This document shows positions 26,470 to 49,405 of a DNA stretch of 64,000 bases, in pieces. The notes beneath the pieces were generated by a model. The model was not told the origin of the DNA, searched no databases, and saw only the letters and a list, made by a program, of their open reading frames with translations. The first letter of the stretch is position 1. Each line of letters opens with the position of its first letter. The stretch comes from Escherichia coli (GTDB lineage Bacteria; Pseudomonadota; Gammaproteobacteria; Enterobacterales; Enterobacteriaceae): assembly GCF_044324785.1 (NCBI RefSeq), contig NZ_CP172127.1. One strand, written 5' to 3'. A program made the position numbers and the translations under genes.

Positions 26470-27498
26470 TCACGGGTTTCTGCTCAGAACTGTGACATCC
26501 AGCACCGGAATATCCAGAGTCGGAGTTACTGCGGGTTTGCGATCATACGTCAGCACTTGCGCCTCTGTTTTGTGACCAGAGAACAACTGCTTTTCTTTAC
26601 TGCTTCCGTCGTAGTCTGAGATCCCCTTCGCTTTTAAATCGTGAAACGTTCCCGTAATCGGGTAGCCCAGCTTTTCACTTGCCGCCGCCCTGGCTTTACG
26701 CCAGATATCGTTAAATCCGGTATAGCTGTATTGCCCGCCATATTTGTTACAGACCACGAAATGTTGTCCTCCCAACGATTTCGCCTGCTCAAGTGCGAAC
26801 GTCAGTCGCTCTGAATACTGTTTGATCTGCTTTTTGCCAGTCTTACCCTGTTGGATAAACAACCCCTTACTCATTACCTGATCCCACGTCAGCTTTCGTA
26901 TATCGCCGATCCGCGTGGCGCACAGATAGGCGATCTCCATCGCGCACTGTAAAACGGGAGATGCCTCCTGATAAATTGCGATATATTCCTCGTCCGTGAA
27001 ATAGTAGTCGCGGGGCTTGAGGGAAAATTTACTGACGCCCTGGCATGGATTCCCTTTTACGTATCCGCGTTCGTATCCCCAGCGGAATACTCGCGACATA
27101 CTGGCTTTTTCATGGTTCGCCTGTGTTTTGCTTTTCAGCCCCCGCTTGTCCATATACAGCCGCACGTGAGCAGGTTTTATGTTGTCGGCTTTCATTTTCC
27201 CGAACGCGGCGAGTAATTTCTTCTGGTGCTGCAGATAATCCTTTTGTGTACGCTGACCGAGTTCCAGATAGTAGGTGCTGTTGAGAAATTTGTTCCAGAG
27301 TTTACTGAACGTCATGACATCAATAGCATCATTCAGGATCTCTTCGTATTTCACCCATACCTGAGCAATTGACAGATCATTAATTTTACCCAGCGTAATA
27401 CACTCTCGGGGCGTTGGTTTGAAATAATAGCTGTATTTGTTTTTATAAACGCGGGGTGGCAGCTTATTATCTTCCGCGTTTTTTCGTGTTCTGCTCAT
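26470..27498 (-). CDS. prophage tyrosine integrase
   Basis: 342 aa; adjacent to tRNA-Ser 3' end, transcribed toward it; catalytic-domain pattern (ATRIGDIRKLTW..., HDLKAKG...Y). Confidence 0.9.
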   Translation of the reverse strand: MSRTRKNAEDNKLPPRVYKNKYSYYFKPTPRECITLGKINDLSIAQVWVKYEEILNDAIDVMTFSKLWNKFLNSTYYLELGQRTQKDYLQHQKKLLAAFGKMKADNIKPAHVRLYMDKRGLKSKTQANHEKASMSRVFRWGYERGYVKGNPCQGVSKFSLKPRDYYFTDEEYIAIYQEASPVLQCAMEIAYLCATRIGDIRKLTWDQVMSKGLFIQQGKTGKKQIKQYSERLTFALEQAKSLGGQHFVVCNKYGGQYSYTGFNDIWRKARAAASEKLGYPITGTFHDLKAKGISDYDGSSKEKQLFSGHKTEAQVLTYDRKPAVTPTLDIPVLDVTVLSRNP

Positions 27499-32884: not shown

Positions 32885-33313
32885 CTATTTTGTCTGGTTT
32901 TTGGCTTCAAGTAGTTCTTTTAGCAGTAGATCGAAGTGCTCTCTTTTTTCTTTTAGCTCATTGATTAGTTTATTTTTTTCGCTCTCAGGCAGTCCTCTGA
33001 ATAGTTGCAGTAGAGCCTGTTCTTGTGGGGTTAGTTCTTGATTGTAATTACCGGGGTGTAGCGTGGATTCATCCAAATATTCTCCTTCATTCATGAAGAA
33101 AAAATGAACAGGGTATCCGGTCACTTTTGCTAGCTTGTCTAATTTATCTTTTCTTGGCGTTACCCCATTACACCATGCCTGAACTGATTGAGCTGTAACC
33201 CCAATATGGCGAGCTAACTCAGATTGAGACCAGCCTAAGTCTTTTAGAATCCGTTGTAGTCGGCTAGCAAAAGCCATGTTTTTCGTTTTTGTGTTCATAC
33301 CGTAAGGATACAA
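32885..33313 (-). CDS. prophage repressor (XRE-family HTH, cI-like, no S24 peptidase domain); start uncertain (TTG 33313, ATG 33298 or 33277)
   Basis: HTH motif GWSQSELARHIGVTAQSVQAWCNG; divergent from Cro-like gene. Confidence 0.75.
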   Translation of the reverse strand: MYPYGMNTKTKNMAFASRLQRILKDLGWSQSELARHIGVTAQSVQAWCNGVTPRKDKLDKLAKVTGYPVHFFFMNEGEYLDESTLHPGNYNQELTPQEQALLQLFRGLPESEKNKLINELKEKREHFDLLLKELLEAKNQTK

Positions 33314-34201: not shown

Positions 34202-34426
34202 ATGTTAAGACATATTGACCGCATTACCTGGCGTAACGGCTGGCACCTGAATGGACGCCCGGCACATGTTGCAGAGATCCGCCCCATATTCGATGGCCGC
34301 GTCGCAGCTGCACGTTCTGTATGGGAAAAGTACGAAGAAGAAAAAGCGAAACTGCGTGAGCAAAATCTCTCTGGCGCTGCCTATGAGGCTGGCTGTCGCG
34401 TTCTCTCAGAGGCTTTGGGCATATGA
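34202..34426 (+). CDS. hypothetical protein
   Basis: 74-aa ORF, stop overlaps next start. Confidence 0.4.
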   Translation: MLRHIDRITWRNGWHLNGRPAHVAEIRPIFDGRVAAARSVWEKYEEEKAKLREQNLSGAAYEAGCRVLSEALGI

Positions 34427-35190
34427 ACATCCTCCCGTTACTTGATAGACCCATAGCCTTCCAGAGAAGTTTTATCCGTCTTGAAATTGGCGTGACTGCC
34501 GCATTGTTTCTGTCGCAGTTGACGTACTGGACAAACAGAACAACTGACGACGGCTGGGTGTATAAAACCCAGGATGAGTGGGAAGAGGAAACAGGGCTTT
34601 CACGATACGAGCAGGAGGGCGCCCGCAAAAAACTACGTGGTCTCGGCGTCTTGCTGGAACGTAAACAGGGCTTGCCTGCCAGGCTGTACTACAAAATCGA
34701 TAATGATGTGTTGTGCCAGCTACTTACGTCCGCATACAAGGATGCGGAAAAACCACATACAGGTGAGGGGAAAACCACCAGGCCTGTACGTGGAAAACCA
34801 ACAAACATTCTTACAGAGAATACAACAGAGATTACTACAGAGATTATTACTGATGGTGAATCGGCTGACGCCGACACCCAACAACCTGCCGACCAGAGAA
34901 TAAATTATCAGGTGATACTCGATACCTATCACGAGATTTTGCCAGAGATGCCACCAGTGAAAATCCTCACTGACGGCAGAAAAAAACACCTTCGCACTTT
35001 CTGGAAAAAATTCAATTTCAATGAGTCCCGTTGGCGGGCCTATCTGGAATTTATCGGTGGCAATTGTCGCTGGATGCTGGAGGACAGGCCAAATGGCAGG
35101 GGAGGATTCTGGCGGCGTAAAAATCTTGATTATCTGATTACCGAACGCTGCTACGTTTCGGTTAAGGAAGAACGCGCAAATGATAAATAA
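34423..35190 (+). CDS. phage replication initiation protein (O-like, N-terminal winged-helix)
   Basis: 255 aa, immediately precedes and overlaps DnaB-like helicase gene. Confidence 0.6.
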   Translation: MNILPLLDRPIAFQRSFIRLEIGVTAALFLSQLTYWTNRTTDDGWVYKTQDEWEEETGLSRYEQEGARKKLRGLGVLLERKQGLPARLYYKIDNDVLCQLLTSAYKDAEKPHTGEGKTTRPVRGKPTNILTENTTEITTEIITDGESADADTQQPADQRINYQVILDTYHEILPEMPPVKILTDGRKKHLRTFWKKFNFNESRWRAYLEFIGGNCRWMLEDRPNGRGGFWRRKNLDYLITERCYVSVKEERANDK

Positions 35191-36595
35191 CGCGATTGCA
35201 CTGTACAGCGTTGACGCAGAACAGGCTGTTCTGGGCTGTCTGATGCTGAATACCGACCACGACAGAACCAATGCGGTATTTGCGTTACTGAAACCGGAAA
35301 CGTTTTATATCAATGCGCATCAGGTTATCTACCGGGAGATCAAAGGATTATTTCAAGCTGATAAACCAACTGACCTGATAACACTGACCGAACTGATGGA
35401 ATCGAAGGGGCTGTATGAGCGCGTGGGGGGATTCGCATACCTGGCTGAAATGAGTAAGGCGGCGATACCGGCCTCAATGGTCAACTACGCGAAAATTGTA
35501 CGTGAAAAAGCCATTCTTCGTTACGCCGTGGAAAAGTTGAATTCTTGTCTGGAGATTATGACCCAGCCTGCAGATATGACTGCTACTGACAGGATCAGCA
35601 CCGTTCAGCAAGTGATTGGACAGGTAGCTGAACATGCCCGTACCGGGCATAAGGGCGGTTTGCGTCCGGCAAGTGAAGTCGTCGATGACTGGATAGATGA
35701 CCTTGATCGCCGTTTCAATGATCCAGCACATGCAGCCGGACTAACGCTCGGAATCGAAAGCCTTGATCGCTTAATGGCACCAAAGCAGGCGTTAAGAGGC
35801 TCATTGGTCGTTATTGGTGCCCGGCCAAAAATGGGCAAGACAGCCGCGTTTAATAAAATTGCGGTGCATTTTGCTCTGAATCATCGTTTGCCGACGCTGG
35901 TATTTAGCCTGGAAATGACTGACAGAAGTCTCATTGAACGCATGGTTGCGCAGGAAGCAAAGGTCAATTCGGAGATTTTTTATCTTGGCCCTAACGATGA
36001 ATCTGAATTGAGTCTCGCAATAGCAAAGGCGGGGGAGATTGCCGAATCCAACATGATGATTGACAGCACGGCAGGCGTAACCCTTGCGCATATTGTCGCT
36101 GAATGCCGAAAGGTTAAGCGGATGCATGGCTCGGTTGGCCTGGTGGCAATTGACTATTTGACGCTGATGAAAACCGAAGCGGCAGAACGTCGGGATATTG
36201 CGTATGGCGATATCACAACCGGTTTGAAGAACCTGGCAAAAGAGCTGGATTGTGTTGTGGTCCTGCTGACGCAACTCAACCGAAAACTTGAAGAACGAGC
36301 AGATAAGCGGCCTAACCCGAGCGACAGTAAAGATACCGGGCAGATCGAACAAGATTGCGATGTCTGGATTGGCCTCTATCGTGATGCTGTTTATAACGAA
36401 AATGCCGACCCAAATCTCATGGAAATGTTGCTACGTCTGAACCGCGAAGGACCATCGGGAACAGCCTACGCCCTGATGAAAAATGGCTCAGTTATTGATA
36501 TCAGCGATGAGGAGGTTTATCGCCGTACCAACTACCGCTCAGAAAAAAATAAACGTTATTCCCGTAGCGATAATTCTCGCACAAATGAATTTTAA
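35180..36595 (+). CDS. replicative DNA helicase, DnaB-like
   Basis: 471 aa; N-terminal DnaB domain (AEQAVLGCLML...), Walker A GARPKMGKT, Walker B VAIDYL. Confidence 0.9.
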   Translation: MINNAIALYSVDAEQAVLGCLMLNTDHDRTNAVFALLKPETFYINAHQVIYREIKGLFQADKPTDLITLTELMESKGLYERVGGFAYLAEMSKAAIPASMVNYAKIVREKAILRYAVEKLNSCLEIMTQPADMTATDRISTVQQVIGQVAEHARTGHKGGLRPASEVVDDWIDDLDRRFNDPAHAAGLTLGIESLDRLMAPKQALRGSLVVIGARPKMGKTAAFNKIAVHFALNHRLPTLVFSLEMTDRSLIERMVAQEAKVNSEIFYLGPNDESELSLAIAKAGEIAESNMMIDSTAGVTLAHIVAECRKVKRMHGSVGLVAIDYLTLMKTEAAERRDIAYGDITTGLKNLAKELDCVVVLLTQLNRKLEERADKRPNPSDSKDTGQIEQDCDVWIGLYRDAVYNENADPNLMEMLLRLNREGPSGTAYALMKNGSVIDISDEEVYRRTNYRSEKNKRYSRSDNSRTNEF

Positions 36596-36633
36596 CCACG
36601 CCTGACCAGCGTGAAATAACCGAGGAAAGACCA

Positions 36634-38220: not shown

Positions 38221-38444
38221 ATTGACTTAGAAAAAGCCCGGGGCTATAGTTTCCGCGCAGCCGCAAAATCGGTTGCCGGGATTGGCGTCCCGGATATCTA
38301 AGTGACGCATAGCCGCGTTAGCGGTTTTTTTATGTGTTAGGCACGGCCACATTCGCATTATGGTGGGCTGTGTGGGGGCTTCTGCGGAAGCGCCGGGTTC
38401 ACTTAGCCGGTTACGCCAACCCTGCACAGTTCACCACCAGATGA

Positions 38445-39137
38445 TTGGCGTCGCTGGTGGTGATGAAAAAAACACTAAGTGAGGCCACTGCGATGACAAT
38501 CCAAATATCTGCGGAATCCCTTTCTCCGCTACATCATAACCAACTTCCCGTCATCACTACTGAATTGCTTGCCAGTTTGTATGGCACGGAAGTAAATGGT
38601 ATCCAGCAAAACTTCAAGCGCAACATCGCCAGATTTGTCGTAGGAAAGCATTTTTTTAAGCTGGAAGGTAATGAATTACGCGACTTCAAAAACAGACTGA
38701 CAGATAGTCAGTCAGTTGCTAAACATACCCGATCCCTCATTCTCTGGACAGAACGCGGCGCAGCTCGCCATGCCAAAATGCTGGAAACAGAACAGGCCTG
38801 GGAAGTTTTCGAAAAGCTGGAAGATTGTTATTTTAGCCAGCGTCCAGAGAGGCGGAGTACAACTACCGATGACCGTACTCCCTTACGTGATGCCGTTAAT
38901 ATGCTGGTCGGTAAGAAAGGCATGATGTATCCCGATGCCTACACCATGATTCATCAACGCTTCGCCGTCTCTCACATAGAACAACTGTCACAGACGCAAA
39001 TGTTAGAGGCGATTGAATACATCCACTGCCTGCTACTCGATGAAAATCAACCAACCATTCCAGATCACCACTATCAAAAATGGAAAAGTGACCAGAATGC
39101 GCCATGTTGCCAAAGGCGAACATCTGATGACCTTTGA
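38445..39137 (+). CDS. ORF6N-domain antirepressor / Rha-like regulatory protein; start uncertain, 3' region possibly frameshifted into ORF 39013..39270
   Basis: N-terminal pattern LPVITTELLASLYGTEVNGIQQNFKRNIARFVVGKHFFKL resembles ORF6N antirepressor domain. Confidence 0.55.
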   Translation: MASLVVMKKTLSEATAMTIQISAESLSPLHHNQLPVITTELLASLYGTEVNGIQQNFKRNIARFVVGKHFFKLEGNELRDFKNRLTDSQSVAKHTRSLILWTERGAARHAKMLETEQAWEVFEKLEDCYFSQRPERRSTTTDDRTPLRDAVNMLVGKKGMMYPDAYTMIHQRFAVSHIEQLSQTQMLEAIEYIHCLLLDENQPTIPDHHYQKWKSDQNAPCCQRRTSDDL

Positions 39138-39270
39138 CGCTTTCAAAGAGATCGCTGAGCGGGCAGGGTATCTGGTGATCCACAGCGACAATCTGCGAAG
39201 TATGACACTGGATAAATTGATGGTAATGGGGAAAAAGTCTGCTGTATCCGTTGCTGATTCAGCATTTTGA
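39013..39270 (+). CDS. hypothetical protein or shifted C-terminal part of the antirepressor
   Basis: 85-aa ORF overlapping previous gene in another frame. Confidence 0.3.
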   Translation: MNTSTACYSMKINQPFQITTIKNGKVTRMRHVAKGEHLMTFDAFKEIAERAGYLVIHSDNLRSMTLDKLMVMGKKSAVSVADSAF

Positions 39271-39299: not shown

Positions 39300-39377
39300 T
39301 ATTTGCGCTTAAAAAGGTATTTAGTCACAACCAGCACGAGGCCGAATACTCTGTCAAAGTACCGCCCATGTAAAACT
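39300..39377. repeat. decayed copy of the 3' end of the two-TM gene (direct repeat partner of 42901..42978)
   Basis: about 92% identical over ~78 bp to 42901..42978, with a 1-bp deletion that frameshifts the encoded C-terminus. Confidence 0.75.
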
Positions 39378-39447: not shown

Positions 39448-40371
39448 TTATTGGTTTCTGAGGAAAGCGATTCTTGAAAGGGTCATTTGCGTCTGGCAGT
39501 CGACCATTTTCTTGACTTCAGCATCTGTTCCCTGCATTGAAACTTTACCGCACATAGCATCCTTAGTTTTGATCCACTGACGCTGAGAAGGCAGCAAATC
39601 TTTTTTCTTCGCCGGGGTTAACTTGCTCCAGACGGTACTCAAATCAGAGTCGGCATTCGCAAATGCCATTCGGGACTGATCAAGGCTGTCAGCTTTTTGT
39701 GGCTGAAGTTGTGCCTGTCTCTCTATTTGCTTCTCCGCCTCATACTTAGCCTGTTCCTGCGCCCTGAGTTGCACCTGTTGTTCCGCTTCAATTTGGCTCT
39801 GTTGGGCATCCTTAGCCTGCTGGATTTTCTGCTGCTCAACGATCGGGTTGATAATAGAAAGTGATGTCAGTAAAGCGGCGCCCACTGATATCGGATTATC
39901 AGAAGAGGTTTTTACAAAAACGTTTTTCTGATCGTCGGTCGCCTGCACGGTGTAGGTGATACGTTTGGAAAAGGCGTTTGCGTTGTTCTCCAAAAACAGG
40001 CTTTCCATTTGCTTGTCGAGATTACGATTAAAATTCTTTCTGTAATCATCAGAAAGCTGGACGTATTCGTTCGCAGGTAGAGTCATCGTCACGGTCCCTT
40101 CACAAGTTTTCATTGTGCTGCCCGTGTCACTTGATGTTGTGGAGATTTCAGAGATGGCTAGTTTGATCTTGTCCAATGTGCTTCGTTTGGTCTGATTAGT
40201 GACATCAGGGTATTTATCGACCTGTTCAGAGAGTCCTTCATAAGCAGATTTTTTTAATAAATCCATAAGCGCTGACTGGGTTATTTCCGAAGAACAACCG
40301 ATCACATCTTTTTTGTTATCACAGCCTGTAAGGGCAATGGCGAGTAAGAGTACTGAGTATTTTAATCTCAT
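39448..40371 (-). CDS. lipoprotein with C-terminal DUF1311/LprI-like domain
   Basis: signal peptide plus lipobox LTGC; Gln-rich coiled region; C-terminal SQRQWIKTKDAMC...C pattern. Confidence 0.65.
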   Translation of the reverse strand: MRLKYSVLLLAIALTGCDNKKDVIGCSSEITQSALMDLLKKSAYEGLSEQVDKYPDVTNQTKRSTLDKIKLAISEISTTSSDTGSTMKTCEGTVTMTLPANEYVQLSDDYRKNFNRNLDKQMESLFLENNANAFSKRITYTVQATDDQKNVFVKTSSDNPISVGAALLTSLSIINPIVEQQKIQQAKDAQQSQIEAEQQVQLRAQEQAKYEAEKQIERQAQLQPQKADSLDQSRMAFANADSDLSTVWSKLTPAKKKDLLPSQRQWIKTKDAMCGKVSMQGTDAEVKKMVDCQTQMTLSRIAFLRNQ

Positions 40372-42898: not shown

Positions 42899-43504
42899 TT
42901 ACTTGCGTTTAAAAAGGTATTTTGTCACGACCAGCACGAGGCCGAATACCTCTGTCAAAGTACCGCCCATGTACAACTGGAGCGTTAAGTCTTTAAATAC
43001 AAGCCATTCAGCACCAGTGGCAAAAAATACACCATTCATTATCAAAAGCTGGCAAGCAAGGATAATAAGGAACCATTTGCCATAGCGTTTTTTTAGATCG
43101 ATTTCAGCTTCAAAATCTTTGTTGTTGAGTTGTTTGCGCTCATGCTCAGTATCAAGTGAATTCACCTGTTTCACAGATGTGAACTCGGTCAAGATTTTAC
43201 TCTCAGTACGGGTGACTTGTTGAGAGGGGGTAGGAATTGGAATTCTTTTGATTGACGCAGCTACAGCCATTTTGCGAGCTTCGGCAGCTCTTTTTCTGGC
43301 TATTCCGTGAATACGGGCAGACGGTTTTTTTGGAGCATGCGAAACCTTTGTCTGAGGTGAAGTTTCGTCAGGAGACTGAACCGGAGTTTCATCCTCCTCC
43401 GGCTCAACCTCTTCTGCTAACTGACGGTGTAGGTTGAGGGAATCCTTCAGTCGGCGTGCAACTTCCTGTTTGAAACGGCTGTTAAAATCGTCATCCGATG
43501 GCAT
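42899..43504 (-). CDS. membrane protein with hydrophilic N-terminal region and two C-terminal TM helices
   Basis: 201 aa; TM segments WFLIILACQLLIMNGVFFATGA and LYMGGTLTEVFGLVLVVTKYLF; starts 10 nt after peptidase gene. Confidence 0.6.
   Translation of the reverse strand: MPSDDDFNSRFKQEVARRLKDSLNLHRQLAEEVEPEEDETPVQSPDETSPQTKVSHAPKKPSARIHGIARKRAAEARKMAVAASIKRIPIPTPSQQVTRTESKILTEFTSVKQVNSLDTEHERKQLNNKDFEAEIDLKKRYGKWFLIILACQLLIMNGVFFATGAEWLVFKDLTLQLYMGGTLTEVFGLVLVVTKYLFKRK
42901..42978. repeat. intact direct-repeat partner of 39300..39377 (encodes last 26 codons of the two-TM protein)
   Basis: reverse-complement translation gives QLYMGGTLTEVFGLVLVVTKYLFKRK*. Confidence 0.75.
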
Positions 43505-47574: not shown

Positions 47575-47935
47575 TGCTTGCAAAACCGAACAAAACAGGC
47601 CATATTAAACGCTAATTTGGTATGTTGCCAAATTTCTAAGAACCTCGCCACGGCGGGGTTTTGTCGTTTCTGAATCAGGAAAAATCATGTCTGAACCTCT
47701 AACCGCTGGCGTTGCTGCTGGCTCGGCGGGGGTGACGTTTGCTGCGTTATTTCCTGAGGCAACACCTGCAGTGATGATCTGTGCGCTGGCAGGCGCAGCT
47801 CTCTATGTGTTGTCGTCCGGGCAGCATCGATTCTGGAAGCAGGTTAGACTGGCCCCCTGAATCTCCAGACAACCAATATCACTTAAATAAGTGATAGTCT
47901 TAATACTAGTTTTTAGACTAGTCATTGGAGAGCAG

Positions 47936-48301
47936 ATGATTGATGTCTTAGGACCGGAGAAACGCAGACGGCGTACTACACAGGAAAAGATCGCTATTGT
48001 TCAGCAGAGTTTTGAACCGGGAATGACGGTCTCCCTTGTTGCCCGGCAACACGGTGTGGCAGCCAGCCAGTTATTTCTCTGGCGCAAGCAATACCAGGAG
48101 GGAAGTCTTACTGCTGTGGCCGCAGGAGAGCAGGTCGTTCCTGCCTCTGAACTTGCTGCTGCCATGAAGCAGATTAAAGAACTCCAGCGCCTGCTCGGCA
48201 AAAAAACGATGGAAAATGAACTCCTTAAAGAAGCCGTTGAATACGGGCGTGCAAAAAAGTGGATAGCGCACGCGCCCTTATTGCCCGGGGATGGGGAGTA
48301 A
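47936..48301 (+). CDS. insC: IS2 transposase OrfA
   Basis: [29 protein letters not shown]... recognised as IS2 InsC. Confidence 0.9.
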
Positions 48302-49164
48302 GCTTAGTCAGCCGTTGTCTCCGGGTGTCGCGTGCGCAGTTGCACGTAATTCTCAGACGAACCGATGACTGGAAAGATGGTCGCCGCAGCCGTCACTCAG
48401 ATGATACGGATGTGCTTCTCCGTATACACCATGTTATCGGAGAGCTGCCCACGTATGGTTATCGTCGGGTATGGGCGCTGCTTCGCAGACAGGCCGAACT
48501 TGATGGTATGCCTGCGATCAATGCCAAACGTGTTTACCGGATCATGCGCCAGAATGCGCTGTTGCTTGAGCGAAAAACCGCTGTACCGCCATCGAAACGG
48601 GCACATACTGGCAAAGTGGCCGTGAAAGAAAGCAATCAACGATGGTGCTCTGACGGGTTCGAGTTCCGCTGTGATAACGGAGAAAAACTGCGAGTCACGT
48701 TCGCGCTGGACTGCTGTGACCGTGAGGCACTGCACTGGGCAGTCACTACGGGCGGCTTCGACAGTGAAACAGTACAGGACGTAATGCTGGGAGCGGTGGA
48801 ACGCCGCTTCGGCAACGAGCTTCCGGCGTCTCCAGTAGAGTGGCTGACGGATAATGGTTCATGCTACCGGGCTAATGAAACACGGCAGTTTGCCCGGATG
48901 TTGGGGCTTGAACCGAAGAACACGGCGGTGCGGAGTCCGGAGAGTAACGGCATAGCAGAGAGCTTCGTGAAAACGATAAAGCGTGACTACATCAGTATCA
49001 TGCCTAAACCAGACGGGTTAACGGCAGCAAAGAACCTTGCAGAGGCGTTCGAGCATTATAACGAATGGCATCCGCATAGTGCACTGGGTTATCGCTCGCC
49101 ACGGGAATATCTGCGGCAGCAGGCCAGTAATGGGTTAAGTGATAACAGGTGTCTGGAAATATAG
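48259..49164 (+). CDS. insD: IS2 transposase OrfB (DDE catalytic domain)
   Basis: [23 protein letters not shown]... recognised as IS2 InsD; overlaps orfA in -1 frame. Confidence 0.9.
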
Positions 49165-49405
49165 GGGCAAATCCACAGGTTATTTTCGCACTCATTTCGT
49201 TTGTTGGCGGTGTGTATTGCGCTGAGACAGCATCAGCCATCATTACCGGTATTCTGAACGCGGTGCTGAGTCACCTGAACCCTCCCGTAACAGTAAAAGT
49301 CTCTCCCGCCATTGGTGCACTGGTTGCATCAGTAATCAGCGTTACATCACTGTTGCGGATCATGTCACAAGCTCGTTTATGGAAATCAGATAAGGGGATG
49401 AAATA

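Follow-up and report, generated by a model that had tools for sequence, protein, structure and literature searches.

Are two overlapping reading frames in an Escherichia coli prophage two genes, or one gene that a mutation has broken? This question is raised by a 64,000-nucleotide stretch of contig NZ_CP172127.1 (assembly GCF_044324785.1; hereafter the window), in which an ORF scan finds two plus-strand frames: ORF1 (38445..39137; 230 aa, read from a TTG) and ORF2 (39013..39270; 85 aa), which is shifted by +1 against ORF1 and overlaps it by 125 nt (39013-39137). The preliminary description of this DNA had reported an ORF6N-domain ORF overlapped by a second ORF in another frame, and we find both ORFs present as it stated. 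It had left the choice between a frameshift mutation and a genuine overlapping pair.

Two reading frames, one antirepressor family

ORF1 carries a Pfam ORF6N (KilA-N-like) domain (PF10543; E 6.6e-22, 78 bits against a cut-off of 27.8) at residues 30-112 of the 230-aa ORF, and ORF2 gave no significant match in the same Pfam scan. Both frames match a second profile, PHROG 4792 ('anti-repressor', 268 positions). Antirepressors are proteins that help to wake a dormant virus. Residues 12-210 of ORF1 align to profile positions 1-200 in frame 0 (E 1e-112), and residues 16-85 of ORF2 align to positions 199-268 in frame +1 (E 2e-42), so that no single frame holds a full-length match. A division of one profile over two adjacent ORFs in this manner is far beyond chance, and the gene is a disrupted member of the ORF6N phage antirepressors (PF10543; PHROG 4792). 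The suggestion that ORF2 could encode the C-terminal domain of ORF1's protein is borne out by the profile, which continues from the one onto the other.

The biological start of ORF1 is probably ATG 38493 (MTIQIS...) rather than the TTG, because this is the RefSeq start of intact homologues and the start to which most homologues align. Read from there, the truncated antirepressor frame (38493..39137, +) encodes 214 aa: native residues 1-191, comprising the ORF6N domain, a central helical domain and a linker, followed by 23 out-of-frame residues (HHYQKWKSDQNAPCCQRRTSDDL) and a TGA stop at 39135-39137. The coding sequence for the C-terminal domain, native residues I195-F262, is stranded at 39064..39270 (+) within ORF2; the last 68 codons of the native gene now lie in frame +1.

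An 11-nucleotide deletion at the frame switch

Pairwise and multiple alignments of the window with intact alleles show that 11 nt (ATTTTTCTTTT) are absent at 39063..39064 (+), and this gap is the sole indel in those alignments. A 2-nt 'AT' microhomology at the junction leaves the breakpoint uncertain by 2 nt (39063/64 to 39065/66), and the lost bases form a T-rich, low-complexity run. Removing 11 nt moves the reading frame by +1, the very offset that separates ORF2 from ORF1. Around the junction the intact protein reads ...ENQPTIPD-FSF-ITTIKNGKVTRMRH..., and the window protein passes from D191 directly into its out-of-frame tail. The intact E. coli allele (WP_028985352.1 / WP_054626896.1; 262 aa) is 98% identical to the window in nucleotides over the whole locus and shares its neighbourhood, namely a DnaB-type helicase, four small ORFs, ant and a convergent LprI-family gene; compared with it, the window lacks the 11 nt and hence native residues 192-262.

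To see how the locus is arranged elsewhere, we searched complete E. coli genomes by megablast (query 38445-39270) and matched the whole locus in 421 of 5426. The matches listed were the 30 best and a spread of 60. Among these, full-length matches measure 837 nt, against 826 nt in the window, and all but one are annotated as a single CDS, 'ORF6N domain-containing protein', of 789 nt and 262 aa in the two records examined. The exception is strain E03, with an 836-nt locus and split CDSs. The 826-nt form was not found among either the 30 best or the 60 spread matches.

The same picture holds outside the species. When the intact protein was compared with a collection of 5.8 billion proteins, its homologues were single polypeptides of about 250-280 aa (45-87% identity, 89-98% query coverage) from Salmonella, Klebsiella, Photorhabdus, Serratia, Dickeya, Xenorhabdus and Yersinia. 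In a 20-sequence alignment they cross the junction uninterrupted and carry near-invariant C-terminal residues (H214, F221, E223 and Y230). Single homologues covering both frames, for which the preliminary description had proposed a search, therefore exist in E. coli and in seven other genera. As they span both frames as single proteins, they speak against its genuine overlapping pair. Its alternative, a frameshift mutation, is correct, as shown by the 421 E. coli genomes (837 nt in the matches listed), the single-polypeptide homologues and the 11-nt deletion at 39063/39064. We also considered the reverse polarity, an 11-nt insertion in the other genomes, and rejected it, since distant homologues read through the tract in a single frame and their residues align there. 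By these alignments, the one-frame form is ancestral and the window carries the deletion.

Phage records contributed little to the comparison. Of 50,697 searched by megablast and blastn, none covers at least 80% of the gene, and their matches are confined to the isrK/C4 leader and the ORF6N part. We therefore used E. coli prophages as the reference. An exact search for the deletion junction in IMG/VR gave 0 matches.

Could the deletion nevertheless have left a working pair, with a 5' product and a separately initiated 3' product (from ATG 39040, 39097 or 39127) that perhaps form a non-covalent complex? The C-terminal module does match a short stand-alone protein family, phrog_340 (85 positions, E 4e-13), and gene callers in public records predict an ORF of 47 or 57 aa at the C-terminal region. 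However, none of the three ATGs has a convincing Shine-Dalgarno sequence upstream; a product from ATG 39040 would lose the first three residues of strand 1 of the C-terminal domain, and those from 39097 or 39127 would retain little or none of the beta-hairpin. A 15-billion-protein collection does not contain the 76-aa product from ATG 39040, and the arrangement is confined to one near-clonal lineage, where it arose recently through the deletion. We regard such a pair as very improbable.

A still slimmer chance is that ribosomes rejoin the frames by a programmed +1 shift at CTT TGA C (39132-39138), giving an ORF1-ORF2 fusion protein. CUU UGA C is the shift site of prfB (RF2). As in prfB, the heptamer ends the upstream frame at an in-frame stop and the downstream frame, here ORF2, lies in +1. 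Unlike prfB, the window has no Shine-Dalgarno-like stimulator 3 nt upstream, where the sequence is TCTGATGAC; nor is an AGGGGG-like element found upstream of CTT TGA C, where ACATCTGATGAC is read. The CTT itself stems from a synonymous ACC/ACG polymorphism shared by alleles that lack the deletion (loci L009, L010 and L011), and therefore was not selected after the deletion. Moreover, no homologue uses two frames, the two-frame state being a lineage-specific deletion and hence unconserved. A fusion would not restore the native domain, since native residues 192-218, including both predicted beta-strands, would still be replaced by the 23 junk residues.

The deletion in independent assemblies

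The preliminary description had advised re-checking the base calls at 39000..39140, and the T-rich, low-complexity nature of the missing stretch would suit a sequencing or assembly artefact, in which the genome itself would still contain the 11 nt and an unbroken gene. Other public truncated versions could likewise include errors, the E03 locus with its split CDSs being one example. Against this, an 11-nt loss is atypical of a homopolymer miscall, and the identical junction occurs in four independent NCBI assemblies (GCA_958309045.1, GCA_044689045.1, GCA_050406725.1 and GCA_044681995.1) that match the window at 99.98-100% identity along as much as 6.6 kb. The 214-aa product itself (P0002) occurs unchanged on 135 public contigs, in 263 collection blocks, drawn from NCBI, ENA and Logan, whose assemblies come from separate read sets. 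The named records are all E. coli, and those at NCBI are EOZ3086678.1, EPA2781047.1, EPA9518195.1 and HFE3566757.1. With the same junction in four assemblies and the exact product on so many contigs, a base-call fault is scarcely credible.

Because four independent assemblies carry the identical junction, the deletion is an inherited allele of one near-clonal E. coli lineage and not a base-call error. Within the aligned stretch, synonymous sites account for all differences between the stranded 3' part and intact alleles, which suggests that the deletion event was recent. The locus thus combines homologues that run uninterrupted across the frame switch, an indel there that is not a multiple of three, and a real allele, the features that mark a frameshift pseudogene.

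A second frameshift lies in the same tract of other E. coli assemblies. Here T5 has become T4 in GATTTTTCTTTT, on another allele background (His186, Gly204), at the position corresponding to window 39063/39064 (L010 1538-1620 and L011 1538-1620). Its 202-aa product (P0007) occurs on 6 contigs, drawn from NCBI and Logan. T5CT4 may be a hotspot for indels, and slippage in the T-rich tract explains the second frameshift most simply.

Protein modules on either side of the junction

To place the junction in the protein, we modelled the intact form with AlphaFold2 from the 20-sequence alignment (mean pLDDT 74). The predicted modules are an ORF6N alpha/beta domain at residues 1-114, a helical domain at 124-182 and, from 194, a beta-hairpin followed by helices, with beta-strands at 194-199 and 202-208. 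The predicted linker at 183-193 is of low confidence, its pLDDT falling below 50 at 186-189. On this model the deletion spares both N-terminal modules and the linker and would remove the whole C-terminal module from its first strand onwards.

No NCBIfam family was found for the intact protein, a PDB sequence search gave 0 matches at E <= 1, and a Foldseek comparison of the AlphaFold model with the PDB returned nothing at E <= 0.001. The sole suggestive Foldseek row, which is not significant, is the Mbp1 DNA-binding domain (1bm8; TM 0.48 on the target, probability 0.21); it is consistent with the known KilA-N/APSES relationship. Aside from its likeness to phrog_340, the C-terminal module weakly matches the C-terminus of phrog_2379, the 187-aa AnrP-type family (E 3.6e-4), and some relatives carry P22AR_C in its place. 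A tblastn search of the phage collection with the 73-aa C-terminal domain gave no match at E <= 1e-3. Across these families the module appears to be mobile.

What remains of the protein could still be active, newly acting or dominant-negative, and kept by selection. This is the main residual uncertainty, and we consider it unlikely. In its favour, the deletion touches neither of the N-terminal domains nor any part of the upstream RNA control module, the family is built of modules whose C-termini can be exchanged, the allele is common, and the T5 to T4 change is an independent frameshift in the same tract on another allele background. Weighing against it, the C-terminal domain is kept in 20 of the 20 full-length homologues aligned, from eight genera; recurrent hits in T5CT4 are expected from mutational bias alone; and the abundance of the allele may reflect clonal expansion of the host, as the loci are 99.98-100% identical.

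The upstream isrK/C4 control region

The sequence before the antirepressor gene reads as a compact array of plus-strand control elements. It opens with a putative sigma-70-like promoter at 38222..38250 (TTGACT, 17 nt spacer, TATAGT; a 10/12 match to the consensus), which sits where the isrK promoter of the Salmonella prophage Gifsy-1 does and whose -35 and -10 boxes are conserved in the alignment with Gifsy-1. An a1/b1 target element of C4 antisense RNA follows at 38244..38296 (RF03163; 52.9 bits against a gathering threshold of 46.7), overlapping a homologue of the Hfq-binding sRNA isrK at 38257..38331 (RF01394; 80.4 bits against 50). The isrK homologue has a terminator-like site, a stem at 38311-38326 and then a T run, that would serve as its intrinsic terminator. 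A C4-type antisense RNA occupies 38356..38441 (RF01695; 74.5 bits against 45), and the same stretch is read as an ORF of 40 aa (38360..38482) equivalent to the 'orf45' of Gifsy-1.

We then searched the ant leader for exact complementarity to the C4 RNA. Two pairing sites are predicted within 38445..38484 (+): UUGGCGU (38445-38451), complementary over 7 nt to ACGCCAA of C4 (38413-38419), and CUAAGUGA (38475-38482), complementary over 8 nt to UCACUUAG of C4 (38399-38406). The second abuts a GAGG Shine-Dalgarno sequence (38481-38484), itself 8 nt before ATG 38493. Both pairing motifs recur inside isrK (38282-38288 and 38298-38305). The complements are short, but their positions are homologous to the Gifsy-1 sites. 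A C4 RNA directly upstream of the gene, an a1/b1 element and isrK with its terminator, and predicted complementarity between C4 and the initiation region together make up a C4/IsrK module. This control module is intact, and the protein alone is truncated.

The closest characterised counterpart is isrK-orf45-anrP of Gifsy-1 (AnrP = STM2616/SL2578). There, the long isrK-orf45-anrP transcript is translationally silent, IsrK acting in trans unlocks translation of orf45 and anrP, and AnrP raises expression of a Q-like antiterminator, which leads to growth arrest (Hershko-Shalev et al., 2016; PMC4825925). The presumed antirepressor role of the window protein is read from annotation names and from these experiments on AnrP, a homologue of its N-terminal domain. 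The order of elements is shared: promoter, isrK with its terminator, the C4-like/'orf45' segment and the antirepressor. All three Rfam families match in both the window and the Gifsy-1 locus, the two leaders have 82% mean column identity, and over the ORF6N domain (residues 1-116) the two proteins share 73% identity.

The two loci also differ in several respects. In Gifsy-1 the orf45 stop overlaps the anrP start (AUGA; PMC4825925), whereas the 40-aa leader ORF of the window stops 11 nt upstream of ATG 38493 with no stop/start overlap. Gifsy-1 AnrP is 187 aa long and lacks the central helical domain of the window protein, and its gene, unlike that of the window, is not frameshifted. The Gifsy-1 locus lies just downstream of Q; that of the window lies about 7.8 kb upstream of Q, between replication/nin genes and the convergent LprI-family gene. 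When the pairing motifs were compared (window 38399-38406 / 38475-38482 against Gifsy-1 968-1268 in locus L008), one differed on both the C4 and the target sides, UCACUUAG / CUAAGUGA in the window against about UCGGUGAU / AUCACCGG in Gifsy-1, while the other, ACGCCAA / UUGGCGU, was identical. The C4 motif pair looks like a co-varying specificity, reminiscent of P1/P7 heteroimmunity.

Phages P1 and P7 offer a second likeness; the mode of action of P1 c4 is established. Like their immI locus (c4, icd, ant), the window has a C4-family RNA, an upstream a1/b1 element and complementary sites over the ribosome-binding region of the antirepressor. It differs from immI in that no icd homologue was identified and that its antirepressor is of the ORF6N type. 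By its likeness to the Gifsy-1 locus, the gene is related to antirepressors of a characterised type and lies behind RNA control of a type already described.

A second C4 antisense RNA (62 bits) occurs in a separate island near the start of the window, together with an EFASI RNA (101 bits), both on the minus strand. Read by eye from translations, the two RNAs are flanked by a putative integrase-like ORF fragment and a 1393-aa Rhs/YD-repeat-like protein; the ORF downstream of the second C4 copy encodes 153 aa. The coordinates recorded for these features are 2851-2978 (-), 4413-4501 (-), 3898-4359 (-), 29-850 (+) and 4881-9062 (+).

The surrounding prophage

Compared with strain APEC20/16, the antirepressor gene lies in a lambdoid prophage that runs from an integrase gene (26473-27498), beside tRNA-Ser and mtfA, to beyond 62 kb. 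Most prophage genes are intact, including the portal gene and an HTH repressor gene (32888-33277, -; 100% identical). An IS2 element (47854-49167; 33-nt imperfect terminal inverted repeats) encodes TnpA (47891-48301; 276 bits) and TnpB (48259-49164; 707 bits) and interrupts the holin gene of the prophage, whose two parts now lie at 47687-47854 and 49176-49403. In two assemblies with the same 11-nt ant deletion the holin gene (127 aa) is uninterrupted, which places the ant deletion first and the IS2 insertion later. The picture is that of the usual gradual decay of a prophage.

Other features of the neighbourhood can be recorded beside these. The replication module (34400-36600) is mosaic relative to the closest complete-genome relative: its DnaB-type helicase shares only about 30% identity with the APEC20/16 protein and the gene before it has no counterpart there, with flanking genes 95-100% identical. 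The gene convergent with the antirepressor (39448-40371, -) encodes 307 aa. It has no NCBIfam match, its RefSeq homologue is named 'lysozyme inhibitor LprI family protein', and by eye it has a putative lipoprotein signal at the N-terminus (LLAIALTGC). Every relative examined has it in this position, and it may be a moron. Just downstream of ant, at 39302-39367 (-), a 22-aa stretch matches (77%) the C-terminus of a 123-aa hypothetical protein encoded at 42902-43270 (-) and may be the remnant of a recombination joint.

The antirepressor gene also contains a protospacer. A type I-E CRISPR spacer, CGCAACATCGCCAGATTTGTCGTAGGAAAGCA, read between GAGTTCCCCGCGCCAGCGGGGATAAACCG repeats in strain 2014C-4587 (L007), is 100% identical to 38619-38650 and the protospacer is preceded by a canonical AAG PAM (38616-38618). 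Matches of at least 99% occur in 33 complete E. coli genomes. We had considered these as identical alleles and discarded the idea: all five that we inspected are 33-nt matches to CRISPR spacers, annotated as CRISPR.

Discussion

With a probability of roughly 90%, the two ORFs are one ORF6N-type antirepressor gene of a lambdoid prophage, frameshifted by an inherited 11-nt deletion. We class what remains as a frameshift pseudogene, or as no more than an antirepressor truncated at its C-terminus, within a lambdoid prophage that is decaying. The course of events may be pictured as follows. In the ancestor of one E. coli lineage, 11 nt would have been lost, probably by replication slippage or a small deletion at the AT microhomology, from a T-rich tract that is predicted to encode the start of the first beta-strand of the C-terminal domain. 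Translation from ATG 38493 would then yield residues 1-191 and 23 nonsense residues before the stop at 39135-39137, leaving the last 68 codons unread.

The truncated protein has most likely lost its activity or been weakened in it, as the C-terminal domain is conserved in every full-length homologue and recurs in other antirepressor architectures. Loss of activity would remove one route by which the prophage is de-repressed, and would fit a prophage worn down in its host, in which the holin gene of the same window has also been split by IS2. The 191-residue core could nevertheless keep some activity, since natural relatives have other C-termini (P22AR_C) or shorter lengths, among them 199-aa Yersinia proteins and the 187-aa AnrP. 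Because the allele is so widespread (135 contigs), it cannot be strongly deleterious and might even be favoured.

The second frameshift in the tract is the sole hint that truncation at the boundary of the C-terminal domain might not be accidental. Taken further, T5CT4 would be a recurrent switch-off point, and the two independent frameshifts would reflect selection in E. coli for antirepressors without the C-terminal domain; we give this little credence. Were it true, such variants might immobilise the prophage or serve as dominant-negative decoys that dampen its induction, possibly also that of related co-resident prophages, with the isrK/C4 module kept for its own regulatory effects.

Both the event, a frameshifted prophage gene, and the system, an ORF6N antirepressor behind an isrK/C4 switch, are of kinds already known, and the truncated product has already been deposited many times in public databases. 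Beyond correct annotation the importance of the locus is small: both ORFs should be annotated as one disrupted antirepressor gene, neither as two genes nor as a novel overlap. About 8% of complete E. coli genomes carry a prophage of this family, ST131 strains among them. Within the family, the allele marks a lineage whose prophage has lost its native antirepressor and may be harder to induce, and it offers a natural truncation with which to ask what the uncharacterised C-terminal domain does.
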